From the NCBI GenBank assembly GCA_963934155.1, contig CAWVXI010000001.1:52174-116173 (forward strand): 64,000 nt of DNA. Reading direction: 5' to 3'. Position numbers and translations under genes: made by a program. Position 1 is the stretch's first letter. Each line of letters starts with the position of its first letter. The notes beneath the pieces were generated by a model. That model saw only the letters and a list, made by a program, of their open reading frames with translations, made no database searches and was not told the origin of the DNA. Source of the DNA: an uncultured Verrucomicrobiales bacterium (GTDB lineage Bacteria > Verrucomicrobiota > Verrucomicrobiia > Verrucomicrobiales > Akkermansiaceae). This document shows positions 1,746-53,017 of this stretch, one piece after another.

Positions 1746-1934
1746 TATGGAATGAGCATCTATATTGTCTCAGTAAAAGCGAGAATAAAAAGTGGCTCAG
1801 CGAGCCGTTGACTAGTCATTGGCTGATTGGTTATTGGCAGGATTCTCTGTATCGGATGATGAAACGATGTTATTTCAGAACGTTTCATCGTGCTGGACCA
1901 ATGACGTGACAGAGGCAGCATAACGGTGGGATGG

Positions 1935-5498: not shown

Positions 5499-8150
5499 CT
5501 AATTTGATTCTAAATCTAGACGTTTTCTGTAGATGAATGAATCGGATGTTAGCAGGGAGATCAGCAGTTCCTTAAAACTGCCGTCATTGTTCATGTATGC
5601 TTTTTCAGCTCTAATGAGTGTTTTTGAGTCAGTAAGGAGTTCATTACGACCCATCCAGTAGCGGAAAGTATGTCGAATGATGCTCTGCTGGACTTTCTTA
5701 GATTCCGCGAGACGGTTGATGAGTTCATAAGCATTTTTGACATCTCCGTCGAGTTTCTTATCGCCTGTTCCGTCTAGATAACCTTTAGAGTTTATTGGTT
5801 TTGTCACAAAGATACCTTTAATTTTGGGAAGCCCTTCCATATCTTCTTTTTCTCTCCATTTTCCAAAATCATCAAAGACTTCAAAAGGGTATCCGAGCGG
5901 ATTCATTTTGACGTGGCATTTCCAGCACTGTTTAGCCTCGGTTAAAGAATACCGCTCTCTTAGAGTCTGATGATGGTCTTCTGGGATAGTAGCATCTACT
6001 GTAATAGGGACATCAGGAATCGTTCCAGCGAGTAAGTATTCTCTGATCCATTTACCTCTTCTCACCGGGTCAGTGTGTGAATTTAGCGAATGGGCTATCA
6101 GCCAACTAGGATGGGATAGAATTCCTATGCGTTTACCCTTTGCTAAAACGAATGGCTGCTCTATGGGGAAATCCCATTTTCTAGCTGGTAGGTTATAAGC
6201 TAACAAATAATTAGACCTTTCAATTTTGACACGGTCTCCAAACGACTGGATTCCCAGTTTTTCACATTCATCCATGTGTTTCATTGTCGATTTTAGCATA
6301 TTGCCATTAAAATGATTAAACATTTTATGTAGAGACTGAACGAATTTTTTATGCTCTTTAATCAACTCGTTAGCGTTCTTTTTCCAATTTTTATCTTTGA
6401 AAAAAGCATGCATTTTTTGATAAGCCTCAATTTCGATTTTCACTGCTTTATTATCACCGCTGTGGGCTACAAAGTATTCATTTGTTGTTAGTAGTTTCTT
6501 AAAAACATTCTTATCTTCATTGAGTATATGCCGAATAAGCACATCAGTATCATTGACGTATCTCTGGGCGTAGTTGAAAAAAGTGTATCCCTTGGCAAAT
6601 CTTTTATCATCTTTGAATATGTGGGGTGCGTGGTGATAGCCAAAAAACTCCTGGAAAAAGCGTAGTATGCGAGGTTTATCGATGCTGCTGTCTTCGAGTA
6701 GTCTAGTCACCTCCCGCTTTACATCCTCCCTTATGGTAAGCTTTCCGTTCTGTGCTGCCTCAAGGAGCAGTTGATCCGGTTTTTGGTCAGTCAGAGCATA
6801 AGAAATGGCATAGGCTAATTCTGTCGGGGATAGCATGGTGCGACCATCGCCCACCGGCTTACCTAGGCCAAGTTCTGAACGATAGATGAATTTAGGGCTG
6901 CACAATATAGCGATTAAAGAATTGCGCAGTCCAAAATAAGGACCCGCATCTTTAATGCCATTTTGCATGAAATCCGTGTATTTTGTTAGGTCCTCTTGAC
7001 TGGCGTCCTGCTGAATGGTGCGCTCAAAATGATATTTGATGGCGGCCTCCATCATCTCTTTTGTTGGCTTACCGTCAGCAAGAATAATGTCTCGATATAC
7101 TTGCGGTGTTTTTAATCTGTATTTCCGATTGATTTCTCCATGCATGCCTCGGACATATCGAGGGTTCTTTCCGTCTTTAATCATCTGAGCAATGACATCC
7201 GCCTGCTTTTTAATCACTTTGGCGCGATCAGCATTCCAATCATCCATGGTTTTCCCCTGAGCTTTATAGTCCATTTCGATGAAAGCCATCAATAAGGTGC
7301 TATCGACAATGAAGACCGCATTTCGATGTAAGGTATCAAAAGTCGCTGAATCGGCGTAAAATAGTGAGGCGTAATCAGAGATTCCCTCACCACCACCTTT
7401 ATTAAAGGGTTGGTTGATCTTGTTCAGTTCGCCGATCGTAGCTTTGGGGTTTTGATGGACTCCAAATACGGTTCTTATGGAATTATTAAATTGATAGGGG
7501 CTGCGTCTCCATAAGCGTGCGGGTGAAAAAGCTTCTACTTTGATTTCGCCTGAAAATAATTTTTCATGATCAACGTAATTGGCATAATGGGGCTTGCTGA
7601 TTTTTTCGGCAAGTCGAGATGCTTGATGCTTATCCAGCTCTGTTGATACCCACTTGAATAAAGAATCTCTTTCCTTGCTGGTAGGTTGCGATTTCTTTTT
7701 AGGGGGCATGTGCTTTAAATAGACCTGTTCTTGCATCTTGTTAAATACATCAAGGCGTTCAGGAAGCGCCAGAGAAGCAAGGTTATCTAGTCGGATATTT
7801 CCTTTCTGAATAGCATCATCATGGCAGTTAAAACAGTATTCTGAAAGCATATCATCATGACGCTCACTCATCTTAAAATGTGTGATTACTGGCTCAGCGT
7901 GCTTTTCTTGAGCTTGCGCCTTTAGCTGATTTACTTTATTCGCATGTTTTGGTTTTACTTCCGTATTTACTAATTGGAATTCATCAACGGTCGCTAGCAC
8001 TTCTTTATGAGAATCTGTCTGGGATGGTTTTTTTAAAAAGGAGGGTGAGAAGTAGCCAAAGACAAAAGAAGACATCAAGAATAGCGATGCGATCACTAGC
8101 TGTAAGCTTTTTTTGTTAACTTTTTCTTTGCTGGAGATTTCTTTACACAT
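5499..8150 (-). CDS. DUF1592/DUF1588-family protein with a PSCyt (planctomycete cytochrome c-like) CxxCH motif
   Basis: The 883-aa ORF contains CFNCHDD (a CxxCH motif) near the N-terminus and CWKCHVKMNPLGYPFE near the C-terminus. It sits directly upstream of the DUF1501 gene. Confidence 0.75.
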   Translation of the reverse strand: MCKEISSKEKVNKKSLQLVIASLFLMSSFVFGYFSPSFLKKPSQTDSHKEVLATVDEFQLVNTEVKPKHANKVNQLKAQAQEKHAEPVITHFKMSERHDDMLSEYCFNCHDDAIQKGNIRLDNLASLALPERLDVFNKMQEQVYLKHMPPKKKSQPTSKERDSLFKWVSTELDKHQASRLAEKISKPHYANYVDHEKLFSGEIKVEAFSPARLWRRSPYQFNNSIRTVFGVHQNPKATIGELNKINQPFNKGGGEGISDYASLFYADSATFDTLHRNAVFIVDSTLLMAFIEMDYKAQGKTMDDWNADRAKVIKKQADVIAQMIKDGKNPRYVRGMHGEINRKYRLKTPQVYRDIILADGKPTKEMMEAAIKYHFERTIQQDASQEDLTKYTDFMQNGIKDAGPYFGLRNSLIAILCSPKFIYRSELGLGKPVGDGRTMLSPTELAYAISYALTDQKPDQLLLEAAQNGKLTIREDVKREVTRLLEDSSIDKPRILRFFQEFFGYHHAPHIFKDDKRFAKGYTFFNYAQRYVNDTDVLIRHILNEDKNVFKKLLTTNEYFVAHSGDNKAVKIEIEAYQKMHAFFKDKNWKKNANELIKEHKKFVQSLHKMFNHFNGNMLKSTMKHMDECEKLGIQSFGDRVKIERSNYLLAYNLPARKWDFPIEQPFVLAKGKRIGILSHPSWLIAHSLNSHTDPVRRGKWIREYLLAGTIPDVPITVDATIPEDHHQTLRERYSLTEAKQCWKCHVKMNPLGYPFEVFDDFGKWREKEDMEGLPKIKGIFVTKPINSKGYLDGTGDKKLDGDVKNAYELINRLAESKKVQQSIIRHTFRYWMGRNELLTDSKTLIRAEKAYMNNDGSFKELLISLLTSDSFIYRKRLDLESN

Positions 8151-23290: not shown

Positions 23291-24181
23291 ATGAGCATTG
23301 AACGATTGATCGATTCCTTTATCCTCTACCTCGCCACGGAGAGAGGGCTATCTGCATCGTATCAGCTGTCAGTTAGGCAGACTCTAGAAAAGCTCTCTTT
23401 ATGGATGGAACAGAAAAAGCTTAGCCCCAATGATGTGGGGACCGAGGAGCTAGCAGATTTTCTAGCCAGTCGGAAGAAAGAGGGACTAGCCGCATCATCA
23501 CTGCGCATCACCGTTGTGCATCTCAAGGTCTTTTGGAGGTTTATCTCTGGCAGAAATTACGTGATGGTTGATGTAGCCGAGCCGCTCCTAGCTCCTAAGC
23601 CAAATGCCACACTACCAGACTCAGTGCATCAGTCATCGATTGAGAAACTATTAGAAGGAATAGATACCATGAAATTCTTAGGCAAGCGTGACCGCGCTAT
23701 CCTAGAGCTCTTCTACGCCTCCGGTCTCCGTCTATCCGAGGTCTGTGGAGCCAGACTGGAAAATCTAGACACAGATGACGGCTTCATCCGCGTGACCGGA
23801 AAGGGGAATAAAACGCGTATCGTCCCCGTGGGGATCCAGGCCAGGGACTGTATAGAGCGGTATGTGAAATTAGAGCGTCCCGGGCTTCTGAAGCCTAAGT
23901 CATCATCCGAGATATTCCTCTCTGTCAGAGGTGGGGCACTCAGTCCTGAGCGAGTGCGAGCTATTGTGAAGCAGCGCGCCCTAGCTGCCGGGATTGATTC
24001 TAAAATATACCCACACCTCCTTCGTCACTCCTTCGCAACTCACCTCCTACAGAACGGTGCAGATCTCCGCGTGATCCAGGAAATGCTAGGCCACGCCGAT
24101 ATCTCCACTACCCAGATCTACACCCACGTAGACCAAAAACATCTCAAGGAAACCCATAAGAAATTCCATCCTAGAGGCTAG
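23291..24181 (+). CDS. Tyrosine recombinase XerC/XerD family
   Basis: LLRHSFATHLLQNGADLRVIQEMLGHADISTTQIYTHV carries the catalytic R..H..R..Y box, and the N-terminal SAM-like domain is present. I cannot separate XerC from XerD by eye. Confidence 0.85.
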   Translation: MSIERLIDSFILYLATERGLSASYQLSVRQTLEKLSLWMEQKKLSPNDVGTEELADFLASRKKEGLAASSLRITVVHLKVFWRFISGRNYVMVDVAEPLLAPKPNATLPDSVHQSSIEKLLEGIDTMKFLGKRDRAILELFYASGLRLSEVCGARLENLDTDDGFIRVTGKGNKTRIVPVGIQARDCIERYVKLERPGLLKPKSSSEIFLSVRGGALSPERVRAIVKQRALAAGIDSKIYPHLLRHSFATHLLQNGADLRVIQEMLGHADISTTQIYTHVDQKHLKETHKKFHPRG

Positions 24182-40554: not shown

Positions 40555-40833
40555 AATAAGTAATCTAGGCAGGTGCGCCTGATGATAGATCAGTTTTAAA
40601 AATGAAAAAACCAAATGATCAAACGACGCTTAATAAATAAGAAATACAGCCTGAACTGGCAAGAATTAATTTGAGGTATCTTTCTGCTACTAAGCGAGAA
40701 GAATCGGGCTATTTTACGGGTGATTTTTGAAGAGCTGAAACTCATTCGCTTTTTGAGAAGCCTTTCTATGATGAGGAGGTTCGTGATTCTCAGACTCCTA
40801 TTCAGCTTATGGGATTGCTTTTTCCGTGCTTCA

Positions 40834-41106
40834 TCACATCAGCCAAATACCAACTGCGGTGACTAATGTGCTGATAATGAAAACAACGGCGAGAGAAAAA
40901 GAGGAAGAACTACGATCACGAAACGCATCTGAAATACCTCTGCTGAAGCCAAGGATGAATGAGAACAAACCGCCTAAAAGAAATACATCTGCCCATTGCC
41001 ATACTGCAACTTCGTTACTGTCATCCCTGGAAAATGCGAGTCCTATAGCGGAAAGAGAGGCTAAAATACCACCTAATATAGCGAGTATCAGTCCTAGCGA
41101 TTCCAT
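40834..41106 (-). CDS. Small membrane protein (3 TM), hypothetical
   Basis: The 90-aa ORF has hydrophobic segments. The opposite-strand ORF 40826-41137 is less protein-like. Confidence 0.45.
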   Translation of the reverse strand: MESLGLILAILGGILASLSAIGLAFSRDDSNEVAVWQWADVFLLGGLFSFILGFSRGISDAFRDRSSSSFSLAVVFIISTLVTAVGIWLM

Positions 41107-41275
41107 TTTAGTTATGGGAGTTCATTTAATGGGTTGATTTTGAGTAGATTATCTAACAAAAGTGTCCTGCAGAGGGGGGGATGTGGACGAAGAGAGTAAT
41201 GACTGGAGTTGTGATTGGGCTTTGTAGCTCATAGTCCTTAGGTGTCGGATAATGTGATTGTTCGCTTTGTTTGCT

Positions 41276-41941
41276 TCAGACCCAATGGAGTTTATCTTGA
41301 CGTTCGCGATAAACAATCCCTAGGACTCTGGCATTGGTCATTAATGAATATGATGTGACAACTGCCATTACCAGTGTTCCTAGAATGAAATTTCCTTGAA
41401 AAATACTCCCTATCAAAACCTCTGTTAAGTAAACTAGGCAAAGCATTAAAATACCAATCCAATAAATCCAACCGCCTCGAAATATAGATGGAATGACAAT
41501 ATGCGGGCTACAGCAACCAATAGAACCTAATATCACTACGGATAAGATAGCCATAGGGAAGTAAATAATCCCCAGAGCCAATAGAACTACTGATATCAAT
41601 GACTCGGAATCACCAGATAATATAAAATAGCGATAAGCAAAATAGGGGGTGAACGAGACTATTACTACCGTGAAGACCTGAAGCATAGGCGAAATCATAT
41701 CCTCAATAATATTTGATGTTTCAGGGAATTCAGGAGCTTCTTTACCACCGGTAGCGGTGGATTTTATTATTTGATAGAATATTGCGCAAAAATATCCAGT
41801 AAATAAGATTGAAGCAATTATTCCAAACAAAGGAGCAAAGCTAGCTAATGCAGCAAGAACCGATAGGATAGCACAAGTGATGAGGATGGATTTACCGCTA
41901 CCACGATAAGCGTAGGTTAGGATGTCTATAATGGGATTCAT
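41276..41941 (-). CDS. Polytopic membrane protein, hypothetical (DUF4013-like impression)
   Basis: The 221-aa ORF has about 6 TM helices. The family guess is from memory only. Confidence 0.5.
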   Translation of the reverse strand: MNPIIDILTYAYRGSGKSILITCAILSVLAALASFAPLFGIIASILFTGYFCAIFYQIIKSTATGGKEAPEFPETSNIIEDMISPMLQVFTVVIVSFTPYFAYRYFILSGDSESLISVVLLALGIIYFPMAILSVVILGSIGCCSPHIVIPSIFRGGWIYWIGILMLCLVYLTEVLIGSIFQGNFILGTLVMAVVTSYSLMTNARVLGIVYRERQDKLHWV

Positions 41942-42046
41942 CTTTTTTATTTGTTTGGCTTCATCCTGTTGGTGTCTCCTACAGAGAAACTCTATTAGTT
42001 AGTTTATTATTTATAGAGGAAGAGCAGAGAATGTATATTATAACAT

Positions 42047-42121
42047 TTCCCCAGCCAGCTTTGCTGCACTTTCAAATCATTCCATCAAACGATCAATCCA
42101 GTATCACTGTGAGGATGGTAT
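42047..42121. repeat. Left copy of a 66-nt perfect / about 75-nt near-perfect inverted repeat (partner at 54112-54187)
   Basis: I checked base by base that 42056-42121 equals the reverse complement of 54112-54177. Beyond that there are one mismatch and one 1-nt indel. Confidence 0.9.
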
Positions 42122-42123
42122 TA

Positions 42124-42357
42124 TCACCCTATATCACCAGATATGCAGAAGAAGAATCCGAAAAATTTAGGGAATAAAGCACCTAAAATTGTTCCTGTGA
42201 CTAAACTGGGTAAACAGAACATAAATAGTTCACTCAAAGGTAATAATGGTATCGACAAAGAAGTCGTTGCTACGAGTGTTAGCGAAATAATGAGACAGAA
42301 AATAACTCCTCCTAATATTCCAAACAGTTTATTTGATAGAGTTGTCATTTTTAGCAT
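42124..42357 (-). CDS. Small membrane protein, hypothetical
   Basis: The 77-aa ORF has two or three hydrophobic helices. Its stop codon abuts the inverted-repeat copy. Confidence 0.4.
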   Translation of the reverse strand: MLKMTTLSNKLFGILGGVIFCLIISLTLVATTSLSIPLLPLSELFMFCLPSLVTGTILGALFPKFFGFFFCISGDIG

Positions 42358-42507
42358 AGCGTCTTAGCATAACCAACCCAACGGAGGGGGCGAACGTGGA
42401 CGAAAAGGTTGATGGATTAGTTAGAGAAAAACTTGTCAGAAAGCGCGCCGATGGGTTAGGATGCAGCGATTTAGGGTTAGGCATTTTTACGAGTTTAATT
42501 GTGTTGA

Positions 42508-43104
42508 TTATAGACTACTTGAAAACGGTCTGTGCATATATGGAATATCATCAATATCAGTATACTTCCCACCAACAATGGCTTTCTTATTATTTAAAAG
42601 AGTTATTCCCTTATGTGGAGGATAACCGTATTGCGGCTTTTTGCCATAACCTAGTAGCAGATATCTAACTTCGTATTCATTAGCTGCTACCTTGATAAAC
42701 AGTATATTTCTAAAGGCTGGTAAAGCATCACTTATATCTTCACTGATAAAGATATGACCTTCATCAGAGGTCTGAATTTGTAGATTTGAACCGAGGGCGT
42801 CGTCCCATTGTTTTGTGAAGGCACTTTCTGCTATGATCTTTGAATTCTTATTTGATAAATGAAGAACATAGTGGGATGAAGTAGGATCTCGTTGTCCAAG
42901 TAACTTGGCTGTAGAATAGTCCGTTTTATCCATGAGGCTTTCACCTAACTTTAATTGTAGATAACTACTCGAATTGGGTATCAGAATTATATTACTATTT
43001 TTGTTCAAGATTGGATGTTCAGACATAGGAGTGAGGTCTTCTTCATTAATTGAAGAACAACTTACTAATATTCCGCTGAACAATATTATTACCGAGAATT
43101 TCAT
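42508..43104 (-). CDS. Lipoprotein, hypothetical
   Basis: The 198-aa ORF has the lipobox ILVSCSS. It lies in the AT-rich region. Confidence 0.55.
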   Translation of the reverse strand: MKFSVIILFSGILVSCSSINEEDLTPMSEHPILNKNSNIILIPNSSSYLQLKLGESLMDKTDYSTAKLLGQRDPTSSHYVLHLSNKNSKIIAESAFTKQWDDALGSNLQIQTSDEGHIFISEDISDALPAFRNILFIKVAANEYEVRYLLLGYGKKPQYGYPPHKGITLLNNKKAIVGGKYTDIDDIPYMHRPFSSSL

Positions 43105-43114
43105 TATTTCATCA

Positions 43115-43286
43115 AGATTCTATGGCTGAAGCTTGTTGTGAGCCGTGCCATTGTAAAAAAGGATGATGAACTTAGGGTTTTCGTGGGCGATCTCTCTGAC
43201 ACGAGGTCGGAGAGACCTATCCAACATGATTATCAATAATCATACCCAGCGGGCGACCACTAGGGAGTGCAAGCCAATGTCTCATC
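43115..43286 (+). ncRNA. Candidate bridge-RNA-like leader of the IS110-type element (speculative)
   Basis: This is 172 nt of conserved non-coding sequence 5' of the transposase stub. It has several hairpins: ATGGC..GCCAT around GCTTG-ttg-TGAGC, then TCTCTC..GAGAGA, then the ATGATTAT-ca-ATAATCAT palindrome at 43226-43243. The same region in copy D is 46921-47092. Confidence 0.25.
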
Positions 43287-43549
43287 ATGAAAGAACTCTA
43301 CTACATCGGACTAGACGTGCACAAGGACACAGTTGGCACTGTCATCATTCGGCTCCTTCGTATAACATTAAACGTCACCAAGACCCCCCACTAGTGTAAC
43401 AACCCGCTAAGGCAGAAAACGGAATCAAAATAGTATAACTAACGGCCACCCAGAGCCTTCGACCCTGGGCTCGTGTCATCACGTGCGTAGCTATACGGGA
43501 CAACAACCGATCACTTCGATGTTCGCTACCGTTCAATCAAAGCTATCTT
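43115..43549 (+). mobile_element. Type-1 repeat copy A: internally deleted IS110-family element (94-nt shared module, leader, transposase N- and C-terminal stubs, right end)
   Basis: The ATG at 43287 gives MKELYYIGLDVHKDTV, the canonical IS110/DEDD transposase N-terminus. It is fused directly to ..RLLRITLNVTKTPH, a C-terminal-type tail. Copy A is near-identical to copy D (46921-47408). Confidence 0.75.
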
Positions 43550-44955
43550 TGAGGTTCTACTTTCTGTGACTTCCGCTTTGTCATCAACTGTGCCCCGATC
43601 CGTTTTTTCCATGCGTTGAGTTTCTCTTTCAATTTAGCAGTTACTTCGGGCATAGTGTCAGCCAGGTTTCTTTGTTCACCTGGATCTTTAATCAAATCAT
43701 AGAGTTCAAAGGCATTTGCTTGGTCATAAGCAGACCTTTCAAACCATTCGATCAATTTGTAGCGCCCCATTCGGACGGCACCTTGTGGACCTAGGCCTAG
43801 GCTGTGATAATGTGGGAAATGCCAATAAACTGCTTCACGAGTTAGTTTCGCCCCCGAATCCTTCAAGAGAGGAAGAAAATTGATACCGTCAACATCCTTG
43901 GCTGTGGAAGATCCACCGGCAATGGCTGTGATAGTAGGAAAGAAATCATTACTTATCACAACCTCTCCGCACTCACTTCCGGGGGTGATGACACCCGGCC
44001 ATTTGATAATTAGCGGCATGCGAATGCCGCCCTCATAGAGATCACCTTTGCTGCCCCTGAACGGCTTGCCATTCTTGGGTCCCAATTGTCCATTATCTGA
44101 ATAGAAAAATACTATCGTATTCTTTTCAAGTCCCAGTTTTTCTAGTGTCATTAGGATGGTGCCCACGCTCTTATCCAGTGTCTCAAGCATCGCTGCCTGC
44201 TTAGGGTTGTTTCTTTTGTTCGTTTTTGCCTCAGGCTTCGTGGCATATTTCTCAACAAGAGCTTTTTTCTCGATTTCCGGAGAGTGAATGCTGTTGTGCG
44301 TCACGTAGCAGAAAAAAGGCTTGTTCTTGTTGTTCTGAATAAAAGCAATGGATCTTTCCGTGATTTCCCGAACATGATGCCAGTCTTCGTCGTACATGCT
44401 TTTCGGGCCAGCGCCTGGCTTGTGGGTTGTTAGTACATCATCAAAGCCCTGCGAGCCGGGGTCTCCGGGTCGACCGGGTTTGTATTTCTTGTCTACATTC
44501 AAATGCCATTTTCCGAAATGCCCGGTTACATATCCGGCGTTTTTCAGGGATTCCGCGATGGTGACCTCTTTGAGAGGAAGGTGTTTCTGCCAGTCCGGCG
44601 TAATGAGTTTTTTGTCTTTTGGATTCCCTCCCGGAATAAAGTCGGTGAGGTGAAGGCGAGCAGGATATTTGCCCGTCATGATACTCGCCCTTGTAGGCGA
44701 ACAGATAGGTGCGGCCGCATAGGCATTAGTAAATCTCACCCCTTCTTTTACCAGTCGATCAATATTTGGAGTCTCGTAAAATTTGCTACCATAAGAGCTC
44801 AGTTGATAGCGGCCAAGGTCATCCGCTAGTATGAAAACAATATTGGGCTTGGTTCTTCCATCATCCGCAAGTCCATACGCACAATACGGAAATGCAAGCA
44901 GAACAACACTGAATGCTTTTAGGAATGATCTATAATTAGTGAGAATGTTACTCAT
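43543..44955 (-). CDS. Sulfatase (formylglycine-dependent arylsulfatase family)
   Basis: It has a signal peptide and the CSPTRASIMTG (C-x-P-x-R) motif. DDLG and GKWH motifs are present, and the length is 470 aa. Confidence 0.85.
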   Translation of the reverse strand: MSNILTNYRSFLKAFSVVLLAFPYCAYGLADDGRTKPNIVFILADDLGRYQLSSYGSKFYETPNIDRLVKEGVRFTNAYAAAPICSPTRASIMTGKYPARLHLTDFIPGGNPKDKKLITPDWQKHLPLKEVTIAESLKNAGYVTGHFGKWHLNVDKKYKPGRPGDPGSQGFDDVLTTHKPGAGPKSMYDEDWHHVREITERSIAFIQNNKNKPFFCYVTHNSIHSPEIEKKALVEKYATKPEAKTNKRNNPKQAAMLETLDKSVGTILMTLEKLGLEKNTIVFFYSDNGQLGPKNGKPFRGSKGDLYEGGIRMPLIIKWPGVITPGSECGEVVISNDFFPTITAIAGGSSTAKDVDGINFLPLLKDSGAKLTREAVYWHFPHYHSLGLGPQGAVRMGRYKLIEWFERSAYDQANAFELYDLIKDPGEQRNLADTMPEVTAKLKEKLNAWKKRIGAQLMTKRKSQKVEPQR

Positions 44956-44979
44956 GAGTATTCTTTCTGTATTGTGTCG

Positions 44980-45183
44980 AGATTTTATGGCTGAAGCTTG
45001 TTGTGAGCCGTGCCATTGTATAAAAGGATGATGAGCTTAGGGTTTTCGTGGGTGATCTCTCTGACACCAGGTCAATTCCGATGATCGCTTTGAATGGCTT
45101 ATCTGAGGTATTTTTATTGATTTTCATCACAAGGTAGAAACGCAGATCACTGGAGTGACCTCGACTACCTTCTCATTCTATCT
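44980..45183. mobile_element. Type-2 repeat copy B (94-nt shared module plus an opposite-strand transposase N-terminal stub)
   Basis: The shared module is at 44980-45073. The minus-strand ATG at 45127 gives MKINKNTSDKPFKAIIGIDLVS. The right end is ...ccttctcattctatct. Confidence 0.65.
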
Positions 45184-45186
45184 GGG

Positions 45187-45486
45187 CTATTTTTTTCTTT
45201 GGAGTCCGAAGTTCGGGTGGCGCTTGTCGTGTCTCAAAACTGCTATCCGGATGAGAGTAGAATCAGCTTCATACAAAAAATGATATGGAAATGTCCTTAG
45301 TTGAACTCTCCTCAAACCTCCATCTGAAAAATGATGCCCTGTTGGATTCTGCTCTATCTTACAAATTGCGGACTCTATCTCATCGAAAAAACGATCACCA
45401 AGTTTAGTGCCACCTTCTTGATCATAGTGACTCATTGCTGAGCTAAGATCTTTCTGGATGAGTCTGTGATATATAAAATCTGCCAT
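45187..45486 (-). CDS. Type II toxin, RelE/ParE family
   Basis: The 99-aa ORF contains FPYHFLYEADSTLIRIAVLRHDKRHP, typical of ParE/RelE. It lies 1 nt downstream of the antitoxin gene. Confidence 0.75.
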   Translation of the reverse strand: MADFIYHRLIQKDLSSAMSHYDQEGGTKLGDRFFDEIESAICKIEQNPTGHHFSDGGLRRVQLRTFPYHFLYEADSTLIRIAVLRHDKRHPNFGLQRKK

Positions 45487-45487
45487 A

Positions 45488-45697
45488 CTAACGACCTAAG
45501 CTCGCTTTGATCTGACTCCAGGAGCGTCTAGATGAAGGGTCAGCCTTCATCTCTTCGATTCTTCTCTTAGCTTCCAGTGAGCCATCATCTATATCTGATA
45601 GCACTGCTGGTAATGTTGCTAATAGATCAGCGACAAGTGAAGCTCGTTCATCTTCAGGCAATGTCATAGCACCTGCTTGTATTTCTGCTATATTCAT
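45488..45697 (-). CDS. Antitoxin (addiction module component, TIGR02574-like)
   Basis: The 69-aa ORF contains MTLPEDERASLVADLLATL ... EAKRRIEEM ... SWSQIKASL. Confidence 0.65.
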   Translation of the reverse strand: MNIAEIQAGAMTLPEDERASLVADLLATLPAVLSDIDDGSLEAKRRIEEMKADPSSRRSWSQIKASLGR

Positions 45698-45845
45698 ATT
45701 TCAAGCGTAGCATAATAAAACCGAAAAGCTATATTATTTTCAGCGTCCTAGCGTAGTCAATCCCACGGAGAGAGCGATGGTGAACGAAGGTGTTGAGGTT
45801 GTAATTGTGTGAAAAGCTCCGACGAAAATGCGCCCATGGTGTTGG

Positions 45846-46370
45846 CTACTGCGTCTTCGCTTTAGTTGCTAGCTTTTTCCATTTTTCTCGACTAAGAAAT
45901 GCATGTTCTTCTCTGAGTATTCCAAACTTCTCTGGTTTGTGATAGATCATCCATATTGCAAGTGATCGGTTCTGTTTTGGAAACGCCTTATAGTGTGGAC
46001 ACATTGAATCGGGATGATCGATAATATCTAATGTAATCTTATCTCCTACCTTAATATTCTTAGAAATAGGTTGAACTACTTGCAGAGTAAATCGATGGAT
46101 GAATCGTAACTTATAGTAAATGGTCTCTTTGGGTTTATCTGCTTTGTATGCTTCATTTTGGATTTCTTTAAACTGTTTAGAGGTGATTTTGTATGGGCGA
46201 CCATCTAGTAGAAACTTCTTTTCAACTTTAACGATGTAACCTTCAAATGTCTTTGCTGAATCTTCATATTTATCAAGTAGCTCATTAGTTATTGGTGTGA
46301 GAGAAGAACCTGAAAAGGCAACTACTGTAGAGCATATAATCGTAAGGATAGTTATATATAATATTTTCAT
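45846..46370 (-). CDS. Secreted hypothetical protein
   Basis: The 174-aa ORF has a signal peptide. I recognise no motif. Confidence 0.5.
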   Translation of the reverse strand: MKILYITILTIICSTVVAFSGSSLTPITNELLDKYEDSAKTFEGYIVKVEKKFLLDGRPYKITSKQFKEIQNEAYKADKPKETIYYKLRFIHRFTLQVVQPISKNIKVGDKITLDIIDHPDSMCPHYKAFPKQNRSLAIWMIYHKPEKFGILREEHAFLSREKWKKLATKAKTQ

Positions 46371-46379
46371 TTTTTAGCG

Positions 46380-46585
46380 AGATTCTATGGCTGAAGCTCA
46401 TCTTGAGCCGCGCCATTGTAAAAAAGGATGATGAGCTTAGGGTTTTCGTGGGCTATTTCTCTGACACGAGGTCAATTCCGATGATCGCTCTGAACTGTCT
46501 GTCTTGTGTATTATTACTTGTTTTCATAAGATAGGTAGAATCGCAGATTACTGGAGTGACCTCGACTACCTTCTCATTCTATCTT
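46380..46585. mobile_element. Type-2 repeat copy C
   Basis: The shared module is at 46380-46473. The minus-strand ATG at 46527 gives MKTSNNTQDRQFRAIIGIDLVS. The right end is ...ccttctcattctatctt. Confidence 0.65.
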
Positions 46586-46586
46586 G

Positions 46587-46910
46587 TTAGAATCGATTTT
46601 TAAAATACAATTCAATATATGGTCGAGAATAGCTATATAAATATGCGGTATATATGAAACTACTTATTCCCGCGCCCACTCCTGCAAATACTCCCATCAT
46701 AACACTTCTCGGTAAAACAGGGTATTCGTTATAAAGGCAATGACCGAGCCATATTCCTGCACCGCAAAACAGCAGCATAAGGAACGAAGCACAAGGAATC
46801 AGTCTAGTTCGAGGAACAGATTTGTAGATAGCATTCCACGAAATTTTCCGTTCCTCTTTCGATAACCCCTTAAATTCAGGGATATCGTTATATGTCCAAA
46901 ATATCTTCAT
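46587..46910 (-). CDS. Small membrane protein (2 TM), hypothetical
   Basis: The ORF is 107 aa and has two hydrophobic helices. Confidence 0.45.
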   Translation of the reverse strand: MKIFWTYNDIPEFKGLSKEERKISWNAIYKSVPRTRLIPCASFLMLLFCGAGIWLGHCLYNEYPVLPRSVMMGVFAGVGAGISSFIYTAYLYSYSRPYIELYFKNRF

Positions 46911-46920
46911 TATATTGTCG

Positions 46921-47408
46921 AGATTCTATGGCTGAAGCTTGTTGTGAGTCGTGCCAGTGTAAAAAAGGATGATGAGCTTAGGGGTTTCGTGGGCTATTTG
47001 TCTGATACGAGGCCGGAGAGACCTATCCAACATGATTATCGATAATCATACGCAGCGGGCGACCACTAGGGAGTGCAAGCCAATGTCTCATCATGAAAGA
47101 ACGATACTCCATCGGACTAGACGTGCACAAGGACACAGTTGCCATTGCATCAATAAAATAAACTTCTCGCGCAGAGGCGACCTATCACAGCACTTGTGGT
47201 TCGGCAATCGGCTCCTTCGTATAACATTAAACGTCATCAAGAATCCCCACTGGTGTAACAACCCGCTAAGGCAGAACACGGAATCAAAATCGCATCACTA
47301 ACGGCCACCCAGAGCCCTCGACCCTGGGTTCGTGTCATCACGTGCGTAGCTATAGGGGACAACAACCGATCACTTCGATGTTCGCTACCGCTCAATCAAA
47401 GCTATCTT
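46921..47408 (+). mobile_element. Type-1 repeat copy D: internally deleted IS110-family element, retaining about 55 nt more of the transposase gene than copy A
   Basis: The ATG at 47093 gives MKERYSIGLDVHKDTVAIASIK, followed by a stop. A later frame reads RLLRITLNVIKNPHW. The 18-nt perfect palindrome atgattatcgataatcat is at 47032-47049. Confidence 0.75.
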
Positions 47409-47420
47409 GTTAGCTTTGTA

Positions 47421-47813
47421 TTATTCTTTCCTTGAGCGCTGATAAATCGTGATTCTTAGATCTGCACCGCACTTCGAAATCTGATGTATAACCTCGCTCG
47501 TCAAATCTGAATTAAAAGCCCCCTCAGGGAGATAGGATTCGTAGCCTATATCGAATACTCTTCGGTTCGCACGAGTCCAAGTAGAATGTGCCTCTTCAGT
47601 TAAACTGTTAATAGCTCTGCAAAAAGAAGCTATGATAGAATTAGGATCATTTCGAGATTCCTCATCTTCTATCTCGAAGGTCGCCATAAATCCATTATCT
47701 ATCGAGTCGTTGTAGAGCACAATAGCTCCAGCCGTAACTAACTCGCGACATAGGCGATCCAATGATTCAGAAGATTCGACTTCAAGGTCAACGTTGATGA
47801 ATGCTGAGGGCAT
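47421..47813 (-). CDS. Hypothetical cytoplasmic protein
   Basis: The ORF is 130 aa and acidic. I recognise no motif. Confidence 0.45.
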   Translation of the reverse strand: MPSAFINVDLEVESSESLDRLCRELVTAGAIVLYNDSIDNGFMATFEIEDEESRNDPNSIIASFCRAINSLTEEAHSTWTRANRRVFDIGYESYLPEGAFNSDLTSEVIHQISKCGADLRITIYQRSRKE

Positions 47814-48079
47814 ATTTTTAAGCGTACAGTTTATGAGTGCACCCTAATTGATATGAATTAGGGTGTGTAGGGTTAAGTTTTGTGATTTTTTTTAACTTTC
47901 ATAGGTTTCTTACGATGAGTTAGTTCACTTTGTTATTTTGTTCGTTTTAAGTCAATAGGGTTTTAGTTAGGGTCGGTTGGTGTCCTTGTTTCGATGGATA
48001 ATCGATATGATGCTTTAGCCTATCGATCTTTCTATGAGCTTAAATGACTCAGCGGGGGCTGGCGGGTTCTTGCTGCTTT

Positions 48080-49699: not shown

Positions 49700-50380
49700 A
49701 TGGACAAATCGGGAGACAATGGTGCGGAAAAAAAGCAGAAAAGAGAGGAGAGAGATAAAATGCTCTCTCATGGTTTCGCGAAGACTAGGAAGAGTCTGAT
49801 CGCTAGGCTTGATAATTGGGAGGACCAACGTACCTGGGATGATTTTTATCAGACGTATTGGCGGCTGATCTATTCGGTGGGGCTTAAGTCTGGGCTGCGT
49901 TCTGAGGAAGCATTTGACTGTGTGCAGGAGACAATTTTATCGATCGCGAAGCAGAGTAAGAAGAAGATGTATGACCCTGAGCAGGGGTCATTCAAGACAT
50001 GGCTGATGAATATGACGCGCTGGCGTATCAATGATCAATTCCGTAAGCGCAAGAAGGACACGGCAATGTCTATTGGATTTGAGGCTGATGATGGTAGGAA
50101 AACAGCCATTATTGACAGAGTCGAAGACCCTAAGGGGGATACTCTGGATAGACTTTGGGATGTGGAGTGGAAACAAAATTTAGCTGAGGCGGCGCTAGAT
50201 AAGGTGAAGGGGCAAGTCTCGCCAAAGCAATACCAGATATTTGACTACTACGTGGTGAAGCAATGGGATGCGAAAAAGGTGCAAGATATCTTAGGTGTGA
50301 GTATGGCGCAGGTTTATCTGGCCAAGCATCGGGTGGGATCTGTGCTGAAAAAAGAGATCGCCAAGCTAGAAAAGCTCTAA
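49700..50380 (+). CDS. ECF-type RNA polymerase sigma-70 family factor
   Basis: The region 2-like stretch is DFYQTYWRLIYSVGLKSGL..AFDCVQET. The region 4 HTH is ILGVSMAQVYLAKHRV. The real start may be the Met at 49760. Confidence 0.7.
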   Translation: MDKSGDNGAEKKQKREERDKMLSHGFAKTRKSLIARLDNWEDQRTWDDFYQTYWRLIYSVGLKSGLRSEEAFDCVQETILSIAKQSKKKMYDPEQGSFKTWLMNMTRWRINDQFRKRKKDTAMSIGFEADDGRKTAIIDRVEDPKGDTLDRLWDVEWKQNLAEAALDKVKGQVSPKQYQIFDYYVVKQWDAKKVQDILGVSMAQVYLAKHRVGSVLKKEIAKLEKL

Positions 50381-50395
50381 TTTACCACTGATAAT

Positions 50396-53017
50396 ATGGC
50401 GTCCATGATCAGATCCGAGATACACATTCCAGACCACGAGGTGCTGCGCAAGATCGGCGGTGGTGCTTATGGTGAAGTGTGGATGGCACGTGGCGTGACC
50501 GGTGCTCTAAGGGCAGTGAAGGTGGTGTGGAGAGAGGACTTCGAGGATGAGCGTGGCTTCGAACGCGAGTTCGAGGGGATTTTAAAGTTTGAGCCTATTT
50601 CGCGGGATCACCCGGGGCTGGTGAATATTTTGCATGTAGGACGCGGTAATGATAGCGAAAATCCATTTTACTATTATGTGATGGAGCTGGGCGACGATGT
50701 GCATAGTAGCAGAGAGTTTAACCCCGTGGAGTATCAAGCGCGGACGCTGCGAAGTGATCTAAAGGCGAGTGAGGGAGTTCCGCTGGATGTGGGCTTCTGT
50801 ATTGATGTCGGGCAGCGACTAGCTGAGTCACTGCAGTATTTGCATGAGAAGGATCTAGCGCATCGTGATGTGAAGCCAGCAAATGTTATTTTTGTGGAAG
50901 GTAAAGCTAAGCTGGCTGATATAGGATTGGTGGCGGCGAGAGGTCAGCAGACATTTGTGGGCACTGAGGGCTTCGTCCCGCCTGAGGGTCCTGGATCTGG
51001 GCAGGCGGATATTTATAGCCTAGGCAAGGTTCTCTATGAAATGGCCACGGGTAAGGATAGATTACAGTTTCCTGAACTCCCAGAAGAGCTTGCAGAGGGG
51101 ACGAACAAGAAGCACTGGGTAGCACTCAATGAGTTGATCTGTAATATTTGTGACCCAAAGTTGAGTAAGAGGACGATCAATACAGCTCAGAAACTTGCGG
51201 AATCCTTAGCAAAAATAAAACAGGGCAAGAAGATCCGTATAGAGGCTAAGAGTGGAACACTTAGGACAGCGTTAGCCATACTGCTTTTTGGTGGTGCAAG
51301 CTTTGGGGTCTATTATTCCAAGCCCTGGCAGGCGTCTGAGACGCTTGTTTCTGGTGGTTCTGGTATTCCACTAAGCTCAGTGGTGCAGCCTGAGCCTGAG
51401 CCTAAATATCAGTTCAAGGTTTGCTCAGTACAGTTTATCTCACATCCTAATCATGCAGAAATCACTGGGCATGGGAAGGATCAGTATTACGAGACCAATA
51501 CCGAATTTATCGAGTATCCACCGGGGACGGCGTTGAATTTAGTATTTAAACGTGATGGCTACCGGCCTAAGTCAGTAGAGTTTATGGTGCCAGATAAGCA
51601 GTTTGAGTTTTTTCAAGTGACTCTAGATACATTCCTACCACCGAAGGTAAACCAGGTCTGGGTGGACTCCGAGGGGGCTCGTTATTTCCCGCGGGTGGAC
51701 TTCCATGAATCAGGATTTGTGCGGAATGAGCATTTCAAGAGATTTCTGGAGACGAAGGTGAAGGTGGATCCTTTCAGCGTAGAGAATTTTAGTGAGCGAG
51801 GAGAGAAGGTGTCGATCGTGATGATGACGGCTAATACGGCGCAGAAATATGTATCGTGGCTAGAAAAAGAGGCGAAATTGCAAGGTCTGTTAGAGTATGA
51901 TCAGTACATCGTTTACCAGCAAGATAGAAGCCTAAAAGTAGGCGCTGCGGATAAGCTAGAGGAGAAAAAGAAGAGACAACAGTTTGCCACAAAATGCATC
52001 GCAAAGATGATTCCATTCGCGACGCTAGAGCTCACGAGCACGCCAGCGGGTGCTGATGTTTACGTTGATGATGAATGGGTGGGTGTGACGCCGATGTTGC
52101 AGCCTAGACTGAGGCCAAAGAAGGTGAAGGTAGAATTTAACCTGGATGGATATAAGGCGAACGTGCAGCAGATCGAGCTGTCAGATAATGAGCTGAAGCC
52201 AGTCTCTGTAAATCTAAAGCAGAATAACGGAGTGGTGTTTAATCAGGAATGGATGAATGGCCTGAAGGTAAAGATGGTTCCATTCGATGATGGGAAACTG
52301 GCCTCTAGCTGGGAGGTAAGAGTGAAGGATTACAACCAGTTTACTAGGGCTACTGGTCACCGACTACCTAACAATCCGTTGTTTCCTCAGAAGCCAGATC
52401 ACCCGGTGGTGGGGGTGAATAGATCTGATGCGGTGACATTTTGTAAATGGCTCACTGAGAAGGAAAGAAAGGAAGACAGGATACGTCCACGGCATGAATA
52501 TAGACTTCCTACTGATGTGGAATGGAGCTTATTCTGCGGGCTGGCTGATGAGCTAGGGGCGAGTCCTGGAGGTAGATCTTACTTTGCTCAAAATAATCCT
52601 GAACTGATAGACACATATCCGTGGGGCAAGATATTTCCACCGGAAATGAAGGTGGCGAATTTAGCGGATAAGGCCGCGGCAAAGGCAGTTGGCATCCCAG
52701 ATGAAAGAGTTATTGCCGGTTATGCTGATGGCTTCACAAATACTGCACCAGTGGGCTCATTTGAGCCGAACAAACTAGGGATGTATGATATATCAGGGAA
52801 TGTATTCGAGTGGATACAGGATTCCTACAGAGAGGATGGAGATCTAGATCTTGGCGTAGTCAGAGGTGGGAGCTGGGCCACATTTCAGGCTAAGGATCTT
52901 AGGTCTTGGAGTCGATTCCCCATCAGCAAATACATGCGTGATAATCAGTATGGTTTCAGAGTGGTCTTAGTGGAAACCGCTGAAGAAGTGGAAACCACAC
53001 AAGAAGACGAAGAATGA
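50396..53017 (+). CDS. Ser/Thr protein kinase with a TM segment, PEGA-like domains and a C-terminal FGE/SUMF1-like domain
   Basis: The kinase motifs are GGGAYGEVW, AVK, HRDVKPANV, DIGL and GTEGFVPPE. A TM helix (ALAILLFGGASFGVYY) follows. TSTPAGADVYVDDEWVGVTP is PEGA-like. The C-terminal NVFEWIQDSY...VVRGGSW is the FGE-sulfatase fold. Confidence 0.85.
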   Translation: MASMIRSEIHIPDHEVLRKIGGGAYGEVWMARGVTGALRAVKVVWREDFEDERGFEREFEGILKFEPISRDHPGLVNILHVGRGNDSENPFYYYVMELGDDVHSSREFNPVEYQARTLRSDLKASEGVPLDVGFCIDVGQRLAESLQYLHEKDLAHRDVKPANVIFVEGKAKLADIGLVAARGQQTFVGTEGFVPPEGPGSGQADIYSLGKVLYEMATGKDRLQFPELPEELAEGTNKKHWVALNELICNICDPKLSKRTINTAQKLAESLAKIKQGKKIRIEAKSGTLRTALAILLFGGASFGVYYSKPWQASETLVSGGSGIPLSSVVQPEPEPKYQFKVCSVQFISHPNHAEITGHGKDQYYETNTEFIEYPPGTALNLVFKRDGYRPKSVEFMVPDKQFEFFQVTLDTFLPPKVNQVWVDSEGARYFPRVDFHESGFVRNEHFKRFLETKVKVDPFSVENFSERGEKVSIVMMTANTAQKYVSWLEKEAKLQGLLEYDQYIVYQQDRSLKVGAADKLEEKKKRQQFATKCIAKMIPFATLELTSTPAGADVYVDDEWVGVTPMLQPRLRPKKVKVEFNLDGYKANVQQIELSDNELKPVSVNLKQNNGVVFNQEWMNGLKVKMVPFDDGKLASSWEVRVKDYNQFTRATGHRLPNNPLFPQKPDHPVVGVNRSDAVTFCKWLTEKERKEDRIRPRHEYRLPTDVEWSLFCGLADELGASPGGRSYFAQNNPELIDTYPWGKIFPPEMKVANLADKAAAKAVGIPDERVIAGYADGFTNTAPVGSFEPNKLGMYDISGNVFEWIQDSYREDGDLDLGVVRGGSWATFQAKDLRSWSRFPISKYMRDNQYGFRVVLVETAEEVETTQEDEE

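Follow-up and report, generated by a model that had tools for sequence, protein, structure and literature searches.

In this study we analysed a 64,000-nucleotide stretch of DNA (contig CAWVXI010000001.1; the whole stretch is called the window below) from an uncultured marine Rubritalea (Verrucomicrobiota), in which four copies of an intergenic repeat, A to D, lie between small genes. All four copies begin with the same 94-nt module and then continue in one of two flavours. The module proved to be the left end of an insertion sequence (IS) of the IS1111 family, here called IS-1, and the second half of one flavour that of another IS1111-type element, IS-2, placed head-on to IS-1. Copies A-D are very probably dead, fused left-end stumps of two or three such elements, each scar standing in the place of one attC, the recombination site of integron cassettes. 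The evidence lies in what the parts are, in where they insert, in relatives whose corresponding sites are empty or carry full-length elements, and in the integron-type setting.

Results

Four repeat copies in two flavours

The original prediction, made from the letters of the window, had described four copies of one repeat family with a common module, two flavours and a tight spacing to the neighbouring genes. The copies are present as claimed (A 43115-43548, B 44980-45183, C 46380-46584 and D 46921-47407), with right ends that shift by no more than 1 nt when the last base of CTATCT is taken as the end of each copy. The two flavours, A/D and B/C, split exactly past position 94 of the module. 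A and D share 92-94% identity over two blocks, D being longer by 53 nt through a single indel, and B and C can be aligned end to end at ~88% identity. Exactly four matches to a 21-nt core of the module were found in the window, always on the plus strand, where 0.01 matches were expected from shuffles. The open reading frames (ORFs) beside the copies are all on the minus strand. The outer end of the module lies 10, 24, 9 and 10 nt from the start codons at 43104, 44955, 46370 and 46910, the right ends of the copies lie 3, 2 and 13 nt from the stop codons at 45187, 46587 and 47421, and the stop codon of the sulfatase gene (43543-43545) is inside copy A, so the spacing had been described correctly at both ends. 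It had also been claimed that the repeats fill four consecutive gaps. This has to be corrected: the gap at the toxin-antitoxin pair (45698-45845) contains no member of the module family and has an attC-like repeat instead; the gaps 42358-42507 and 41107-41275 are likewise free of the module family and carry this second, attC-like repeat.

The same arrangement was found at 99.4-100% identity in more than 10 independent Tara and JGI metagenome assemblies, and it is therefore not an assembly artefact. The assignment to a marine Rubritalea comes from the malate dehydrogenase encoded in the window, which has an identical counterpart in a Rubritalea sp. metagenome-assembled genome. Related loci, numbered with an L below, were found by scanning metagenome contigs with the module core. 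When one genome per species was scanned with the exact pattern, a single true match (L005) was obtained together with seven others that are due to chance. L005 (CAXMPP010000247.1) is a 2.4-kb contig in the bin of a Thermodesulfobacteriota metagenome-assembled genome, identical to part of a Rubritalea-type array (L012), and its placement in the Thermodesulfobacteriota is probably a binning error. A scan of the whole window against Rfam gave no family above threshold.

The module is the left end of IS-1

IS-1 is an IS1111-family element of ~1.72 kb. At five loci with different flanks (L013, L026, L027, L028 and L030) the module stands directly 5' of a full-length IS110-family transposase gene, whose 384-aa product contains the domains PF01548 and PF02371 and scores 226 bits against the NCBIfam model 'IS110 family RNA-guided transposase' (cut-off 140). 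A barstar gene adjoins the element in L027 and tgt adjoins it in L028, and the contexts in L030 and L026 add to these. As the module accompanies IS-1 into such unrelated surroundings, it must travel with the element. The left end consists of a 6-7-nt extension, (G)AGATTC, followed by the subterminal inverted repeat TATGGCTGAAG and then a hairpin. The right end is formed by the inverted-repeat partner CTTCAGCCATA plus TCA, with TTGACA just inside, and ~430 nt of non-coding DNA lie 3' of the transposase stop codon. The hairpin, at module positions 8-37, overlaps the inverted repeat; it is kept via one-sided changes, and compensatory changes were not seen in it.

Copy D has full-length counterparts at its own site. 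L013 is syntenic with the window around a 107-aa gene, and at the position of copy D it holds the module, a further 47 nt and the whole 384-aa transposase gene. In both L013 and L026 the full-length IS-1 stands at the exact D junction, beside the 107-aa gene. These two contigs are independent of each other and end, at positions 3547 and 2039, at the same base (..cttctactttgt). This base lies ~100 nt short of the right end of IS-1 and directly ahead of TGTTCTC, which resembles the left flank of IS-2. A structural variant of IS-1 probably branches at this break point.

Other assignments of the parts were tried and rejected. The module is not the right end of IS-2, since the true IS-2 right end, ..TTGACAtACCTTCTCATGGA, has no similarity to it. 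Nor is it a conserved target flanked by both elements, because it moves with the IS-1 transposase and contains the left inverted repeat. The right part of A and D, in turn, is not the right end of IS-1, which reads ..CTTCAGCCATATCA.

The partners of the module: IS-2 and segment X

The IS-2 transposase (363 aa) has the same two domains, PF01548 and PF02371, and reaches 206 bits against the NCBIfam IS110-family RNA-guided model, which is above the cut-off; it can barely be aligned with the transposase of IS-1 (32% identity over 66 aa). In nine full-length copies the ends of IS-2 are AGATAGA+ATGAGAAGGT on the left and ACCTTCTCAT+GGA on the right, and joining them creates TTGACA-17 nt-TAGAAT. A region of ~430 nt follows 3' of the transposase gene. 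At L013 the whole 363-aa transposase gene is found, on the opposite strand, at the exact junction of copy C, with the same flank and the same 107-aa gene, and the first 116 nt of this IS-2 are the second half of the B/C flavour. The layout of that half is identical to full-length IS-2 in L013, L024, L025 and L031-L037. In flavour B/C, positions 1-94 of IS-1 are followed by positions 110-1 of IS-2, which is inverted, and the join falls at a 5-nt microhomology, AGGTC. The minus-strand ORF 44948-45130 of the window is a 60-aa chimera: residues 1-20 represent the N-terminus of the transposase of IS-2 (MKINKNTSDKPFKAIIGIDL), and the remainder results from translation running on through the module. 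Annotation programs may list it as a hypothetical protein.

Flavour A/D is an internally deleted IS-1, with transposase codons 1-22 in A and 1-38 in D, joined to a 204-nt segment that we call X. Both the terminal heptamer of X (AGATAGC) and the way its first ~65 nt are laid out can be aligned with the left ends of IS-2, and X has the same insertion point as IS-2. Judged from this alignment, X most probably represents the left end of a third, IS-2-like element. The two flavours had originally been taken for versions of one element, which is not the case: stumps of two different insertion sequences are fused, and the attC between them is deleted.

The surroundings resemble an integron cassette array

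The region from 40.6 to 48 kb of the window reads as an integron-type cassette array without an integrase of its own. Its ORFs are small, unrelated and co-oriented, and include the sulfatase, the toxin-antitoxin pair and small secreted and membrane proteins; its G+C content (0.37-0.45) is below that of the flanks. The attC-like repeat of ~115 nt starts at the stop codon of an ORF and ends 15-50 nt before the next start codon; copies of it were also found in L030, L032, L027, L031 and elsewhere. The ends of this repeat form an imperfect palindrome, the better-preserved copies (L030, L032, L033-35) fold into long hairpins, and GCTAAC and GTTAGCC boxes are present in the attC-like sites.

In Rubritalea profundi we found an integron integrase (335 bits against TIGR02249, cut-off 265) whose gene is divergent to an adjoining cassette array. 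The first cassette of this array is a 67% homologue of the first cassette of the window (130 aa), its ORFs are small and co-oriented, and the sites that separate them start with ..GCTAACAAGACGC.. and end with ..CTTTACGTTAGCCTAAAAA. The R. profundi integrase (L055 7457-8752, minus strand, MQWA01000001.1) has 431 aa, with ~120 extra N-terminal residues compared with the model, and a gap of 1.25 kb lies between its gene and the cassettes. The cores of the R. profundi attC sites differ from those of the window organism, and the R''/R' ends are common to both. The sole tyrosine recombinase of the window is Xer-like, with 122 bits on the IntI model (cut-off 265). This 296-aa protein of XerC/XerD type (NF001399, 304 bits) is encoded at 23291-24181 on the plus strand, ~16 kb from the array.

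Insertion points within attC-like sites and candidate guides

All full-length copies of IS-2 have a left flank ending in ..AACA, in many cases as the R''-type box GCTAACA, and a right flank that starts AG+CCGCAGTGGCAAC.., the beginning of the attC-like hairpin. An empty site corresponding to the X junction of copy D is present in L052 and L054, where the DNA reads TAAtacaaaGCTAACA|AGTCGCTGCATCC... and continues through an intact attC; the occupied counterpart in the window, at copy D, reads TAAtacaaaGCTAACA|AGATAGCTTTG.... This comparison of empty and occupied sites revealed no target duplication. The 130-aa protein of L052/L054 is 91% identical to that of the window, and most other contigs with window cassette proteins are identical to the window. 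As for IS-1, its right end in L030 abuts the far edge of the attC-like repeat (..TCA|ACGTCCTAGCATAGCTAACCCC..). On its left side the flanks read TTTTTAG(G/C)C, so the element is inserted inside the box GGACGT|TAGCC, which is intact in L032. By these flanks the insertion point of IS-1 is the R' core of the attC-like site, a few nucleotides from the integrase crossover point, with the element antiparallel to the cassettes. That of IS-2 and X is just after the R'' box, in cassette orientation. Flank motifs and orientation relative to the cassettes were constant at all 13 distinct IS-1 left junctions and at all IS-2 junctions.

For IS1111 elements, guide RNAs (seekRNAs) with flank-matching segments in a particular order and overlap have been described (PMC11187229). 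The 3' region of IS-1 contains segments of the same order and overlap: AGGACGT is the complement of the right flank ACGTCCT, and 6 nt further on TTAGCCA equals the left flank plus 1 nt. A variant copy of IS-1 has ATGACGT in its 3' region and ACGTCAA in its flank, hence one covarying position. In the 3' region of IS-2 a conserved GAACAAG spans the insertion point, and the complement of a loop matches the right flank over 9 nt in two cases, one of them being the flank of a different copy. This 10-nt loop, ~75-95 nt past the transposase stop codon, differs between near-identical IS-2 copies (L024, L025, L031-L037); it is flanked by GACTGCGA and GCATC, and versions of it are TACTGCGAC, TGCAGCGTGG, TGCGCTGCCG and CGACGCGGCG. 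This looks like natural reprogramming of a candidate guide. It might well be possible that both IS-1 and IS-2 are directed to attC by guide RNAs.

The scars as fixed joints and as sites of exchange

Transposase, right end and guide-RNA region are all absent from the copies in the window, and the two ends of each copy come from different elements, so the scars should be immobile. The cassettes between them are no longer excisable through attC. At least three different internal junctions occur among A/D-type copies. In a 35-kb contig (L047) the sulfatase of the window is joined to the cassettes of L012, and the repeat at this place has an A-like right part together with a left part and flank like those of L012. 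Another locus, L020, is a recombinant between two B/C copies. As such sequence mosaics show, the scars serve as homology where recombination swaps blocks of cassettes between strains.

The features of the region are collected in Table 1.

Table 1. Parts of the four scars, unoccupied attC-like sites and extent of the cassette array in the window. The nhmmer profile for the attC-like repeat was built from the sites in the window, L030 and L032.
Feature	Position	Strand	Remarks
Copy A, IS-1 left-end module	43115..43208	+	module found at full-length IS-1 left ends
Copy A, rest of IS-1 left part: 79-nt leader and codons 1-22 (43287-43352)	43209..43345	+	tblastn 77% identity; internal deletion
Copy A, segment X (AGATAGC + TTTGATTGAACGG...)	43346..43548	-	last 6 nt are the final Arg codon of the sulfatase and TAG
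Copy B, IS-1 left-end module	44980..45073	+	
Copy B, first 110 nt of IS-2: AGATAGA, ATGAGAAGGT, 5' hairpin, codons 1-17 (MKINKNTSDKPFKAIIGID)	45074..45183	-	
Copy C, IS-1 left-end module	46380..46473	+	
Copy C, first ~110 nt of IS-2; then TGTTAGA, an R''-type box (TCTAACA) on the gene strand	46474..46584	-	
Copy D, IS-1 left end: module, leader, codons 1-38 (47093-47206)	46921..47204	+	tblastn 87% identity
Copy D, segment X; then TGTTAGC, the R'' box (GCTAACA) on the gene strand	47205..47407	-	
Segment X, sequence tag AGATAGCTTTGATTGARCGGTAGCG			
Unoccupied attC-like repeat between 174-aa cassette and toxin-antitoxin cassette	45742..45858	-	nhmmer E = 1.8e-34
Unoccupied attC-like repeat between 198-aa lipoprotein cassette and next small ORF	42358..42475	-	nhmmer E = 3.4e-30; terminal stem CCAACCCAACGG/CCGATGGGTTAGG folds
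Degenerate attC-like repeat	near 41149-41262		
Whole cassette array	40615..48079	-	small unrelated co-oriented ORFs; gaps are attC-like repeats or scars A-D

Neighbouring genes and further mobile elements

A gap of 266 nt (47814-48079) lies 5' of the first cassette. It contains a perfect 10-bp hairpin, CACCCTAATT-gatatg-AATTAGGGTG, and next to the ATG the sequence ACGCTTAAAAATATG, which resembles the R' end of attC; the gap may be a remnant of attI or of a former attC. Beyond it a gene for a pyridine-nucleotide disulfide oxidoreductase follows, and no integrase gene is found there. Just outside the array that carries the sulfatase cassette, at 49700-53017 on the plus strand, an ECF-type sigma factor gene is followed by the gene for an 873-aa protein with Ser/Thr kinase, PEGA and formylglycine-generating (sulfatase-modifying) domains.

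Arrays of this type attract several kinds of mobile element. In L027 the gene for a group II intron-type reverse transcriptase (5586-7554) starts right after the right end of IS-1, and the same array contains an IS200/IS605-type Y1 transposase gene (1286-2431). In L030 a very divergent IS110-family gene (1868-3127, plus strand; 419 aa, Transposase_20 domain) lies ~50 nt past the attC that is abutted by IS-1. It would be a fourth lineage at attC sites, in yet another orientation.

Discussion

How might the fused stumps have formed? We propose that the ancestral cassettes were separated by attC sites of ~125 nt, made up, when read in the direction of the genes, of the R'' box GCTAAC, AAG, a conserved core and the R' box GTTAGCC. 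Two kinds of RNA-guided IS1111-family elements with DEDD transposases would have homed into these sites. IS-1 would have inserted in the R' core, antiparallel to the cassettes, so that its left end came to abut the short leader of the next cassette; IS-2 or X would have inserted after the R'' box, with the left end abutting the stop codon of the preceding cassette. Four attC sites would thus have been occupied at both ends. A later deletion between the two left ends would then have removed the transposase genes, the guide-RNA regions, the right ends and attC itself, leaving the left end of IS-1 followed by the inverted left end of IS-2 or X. This order, with double occupancy before deletion, is the one we infer. 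It would account for the main features of the repeats: all copies share the 94-nt module because it is a part of IS-1, the two flavours result from two different partners, and the copies reach from ~10-25 nt before an ATG to near or into a stop codon because the left ends face outward from the R' and R'' insertion points. The original suggestion that the elements home to a site recurring at gene boundaries, as the IS1111-attC group does, was essentially correct, the module being the left end of an IS1111-family element and the target the attC-like R' core.

Several observations weigh against this reading or demand additions to it. We recovered no locus at which both full-length elements surround one intact attC, and the doubly occupied intermediate is therefore inferred. 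A full-length parent of X was not among the recovered loci either, and X showed neither similarity to any of three transposases in tblastn searches nor a right-end partner of its putative inverted repeat. All B/C copies share a single internal junction, yet they separate different cassettes and differ by 5-15%. One common junction is not what independent deletions would produce, and an extra step, gene conversion, has to be assumed. The likeliest course would be that the B/C junction spread from an existing scar into other doubly occupied sites by gene conversion or double crossovers, and not by transposition; the variants of the module are not partitioned by flavour. For the guides, the match between loop and flank of IS-2 is absent in five other copies. 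The attC-like sites of the window are partly degenerate, and one of them folds no better than shuffles. Their assignment to attC is based on position, palindromic ends, R-box-like motifs and the integron of R. profundi, rather than on the covariance model of IntegronFinder, and should be regarded as provisional. Finally, a scan of most of the larger ORFs in the window found no integron integrase.

Could the copies still be alive? As miniature inverted-repeat transposable elements (MITEs) they would be moved by the transposases and guide RNAs of their full-length relatives. One and the same B/C internal junction recurs in at least five contexts, each with another pair of cassettes around it, and the outer ends are well conserved, as a mobile unit of this kind would have it. 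However, both outer ends are left ends, and they derive from two different elements with barely alignable transposases; a right end, a -35 box at the junction and a guide region are all missing. An IS1111 element deletes nothing of its target when it inserts, yet attC is gone at every copy, and each copy spans exactly the distance between the insertion points of IS-1 and IS-2. The A/D-type junctions, of which there are at least three, indicate decay and not a defined mobile unit. We therefore regard live MITE-like elements as very unlikely.

The regular distance to start codons had also led to the proposal that the repeat supplies a promoter or 5' untranslated region. In this case the module would have been co-opted as promoter or leader of the downstream cassette and kept near starts for that reason. 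A co-oriented start is always found 9-60 nt downstream of the module, a TAGAAT hexamer is found at its outer tip on the gene strand, its hairpin has been maintained, and outward promoters are known from other elements that invade attC (PMC3001079). Yet none of the four modules contains a gene-facing sigma-70-type promoter, and no acceptable -35 box precedes TAGAAT. A scan of 40.5-48.2 kb for sigma-70 promoters and terminators gave counts at the level of shuffles, with nothing directed outward from the modules. The hairpin overlaps the inverted repeat that the transposase would bind, it lacks compensatory changes, and wobble pairs in it are possible only on the strand opposite the genes. Insertion into the R' core fully explains where the module lies. 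The spacing is similarly short in cassettes whose attC-like sites are intact, so the insertion site accounts for the distance to the starts. A regulatory role is not supported by these data, and we consider it quite unlikely.

It had further been suggested that the repeat and its ORF move as a unit, which in its strongest form would make the repeats a new substitute for attC, used by an unknown recombinase. The array-like layout would fit this idea, and the cassette content of strains differs exactly at the repeats (L047 against the window and L012; L020). But all parts of the repeats are accounted for as ends of insertion sequences, no recombinase gene accompanies the arrays, and the array contains true attC-like sites as well. 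In L047 and L020 the crossovers took place at differing points inside the repeats, each within a stretch of identical sequence common to both partners, a pattern like that of homologous recombination. Joint movement of repeat and ORF is seen in this form only, inside the scars, and there is no sign of a dedicated mechanism; a new recombination site is extremely unlikely.

The reading as fused scars has several implications. If it is correct, RNA-guided insertion sequences can colonise and then destroy integron recombination sites, here in an abundant polar marine Rubritalea and far from the clinical contexts in which IS1111-attC elements were described. Erasure of attC would turn mobile cassettes, such as those with the sulfatase, the toxin-antitoxin pair and the small secreted and membrane proteins, into fixed chromosomal genes, and the scars would leave dispersed homology where strains exchange blocks of cassettes. 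The parent elements provide natural cases in which candidate guide regions address the two ends of a single structured DNA site, and with the variable loop in near-identical copies they are useful for comparison in work on bridge RNA and seekRNA recombinases. For annotation the lesson is to take such two-flavour intergenic repeats in cassette arrays for scars of insertion sequences and not for new regulatory or recombination elements. One may speculate further, although we think it rather doubtful, that the scars both fix the cassettes and give the population an integrase-independent means of shuffling through their homology, that the B/C flavour was spread by active gene conversion or by residual RNA-guided activity on two left ends, and that the guides evolved for both ends of attC and track attC diversity via the variable loop.

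Several known systems can be compared with our findings. The copies differ from MITEs in that they consist of two left ends from different parents and attC is missing at every copy. Group IIC-attC introns are likewise mobile elements specialised on attC (PMC3001079); they are retroelements, and repeats A-D have no similarity to them. Integrons in Verrucomicrobia and integrase-less attC clusters (CALIN) are already known (PMC4889954, Cury et al. 2016). With CALIN and sedentary chromosomal integrons the array shares co-oriented small unrelated ORFs, a toxin-antitoxin pair, similar palindromes of ~115 nt after the stop codons, low G+C content and the lack of a nearby integrase (PMC4889954). In contrast to CALIN, four attC sites are erased here and replaced by insertion-sequence scars, and the conserved repeat runs ~15 nt past the inner palindrome to a second R'-like box. 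With the bridge RNA and seekRNA recombinases (IS621, ISEc11; PMC11208160, PMC11187229) the parents IS-1 and IS-2 share the transposase family and the guide-like 3' segments. The copies in the window are without the guide region.

Elements of the IS1111 family have subterminal inverted repeats of ~11-13 bp, terminal extensions that measure 7 (or 6) bp at the left end and 3 bp at the right end, a promoter at the junction and a downstream non-coding region (PMC11187229). IS-1 and IS-2 match this family in transposase domains, end structure and site- and orientation-specific insertion, and their long 3' regions may encode guides. Comparable elements form the IS1111-attC group, namely ISPa21, ISPst6, ISKpn4 and ISPa25 (Tetu & Holmes 2008, Post & Hall 2009, cited in PMC11187229). 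IS-1 shares with them a DEDD transposase of 384 aa, subterminal inverted repeats with the 7/3-nt extensions, the -35 box at the right end and insertion in a single orientation at one end of attC. An IS1111-type element on the Klebsiella pneumoniae plasmid pKP5362-1, in the arr-3 attC of a class 1 integron, encodes a transposase of 384 aa that shares ~44% identity with the IS-1 transposase across 95% of the length. Its insertion point in the R' core is GTT|AGAT and it runs antiparallel to the cassettes, so that position and orientation agree with those of IS-1. This element (L057 3375-4935, NZ_CP095763.1) lies between arr-3 and qacEdelta1 on an NDM-1 plasmid, has the ends TAGACAT+AATGACTCCCC and GGGGAGTCAT+ACC, and is annotated just as 'IS110 family transposase'. 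For the transposase of IS-2, identity to plasmid-borne relatives is no more than ~31%. For the known group 'one end' of attC only has been described as the target (PMC11187229), whereas here a second lineage, IS-2 and X, hits the opposite, R'' end in the opposite orientation. The IS1111-attC group also differs in setting, as we are dealing with a marine verrucomicrobial host and an integrase-less array, in which the window copies are only left-end stumps fused to a second element. Degenerate footprints of IS1111-attC-type elements in chromosomal arrays have reportedly been noted by Tetu and Holmes. In conclusion, remnants of attC-homing IS1111 elements in a cassette array are a known phenomenon; new are the phylum, the targeting of both ends of attC by different lineages, and the fused scars that erase attC.

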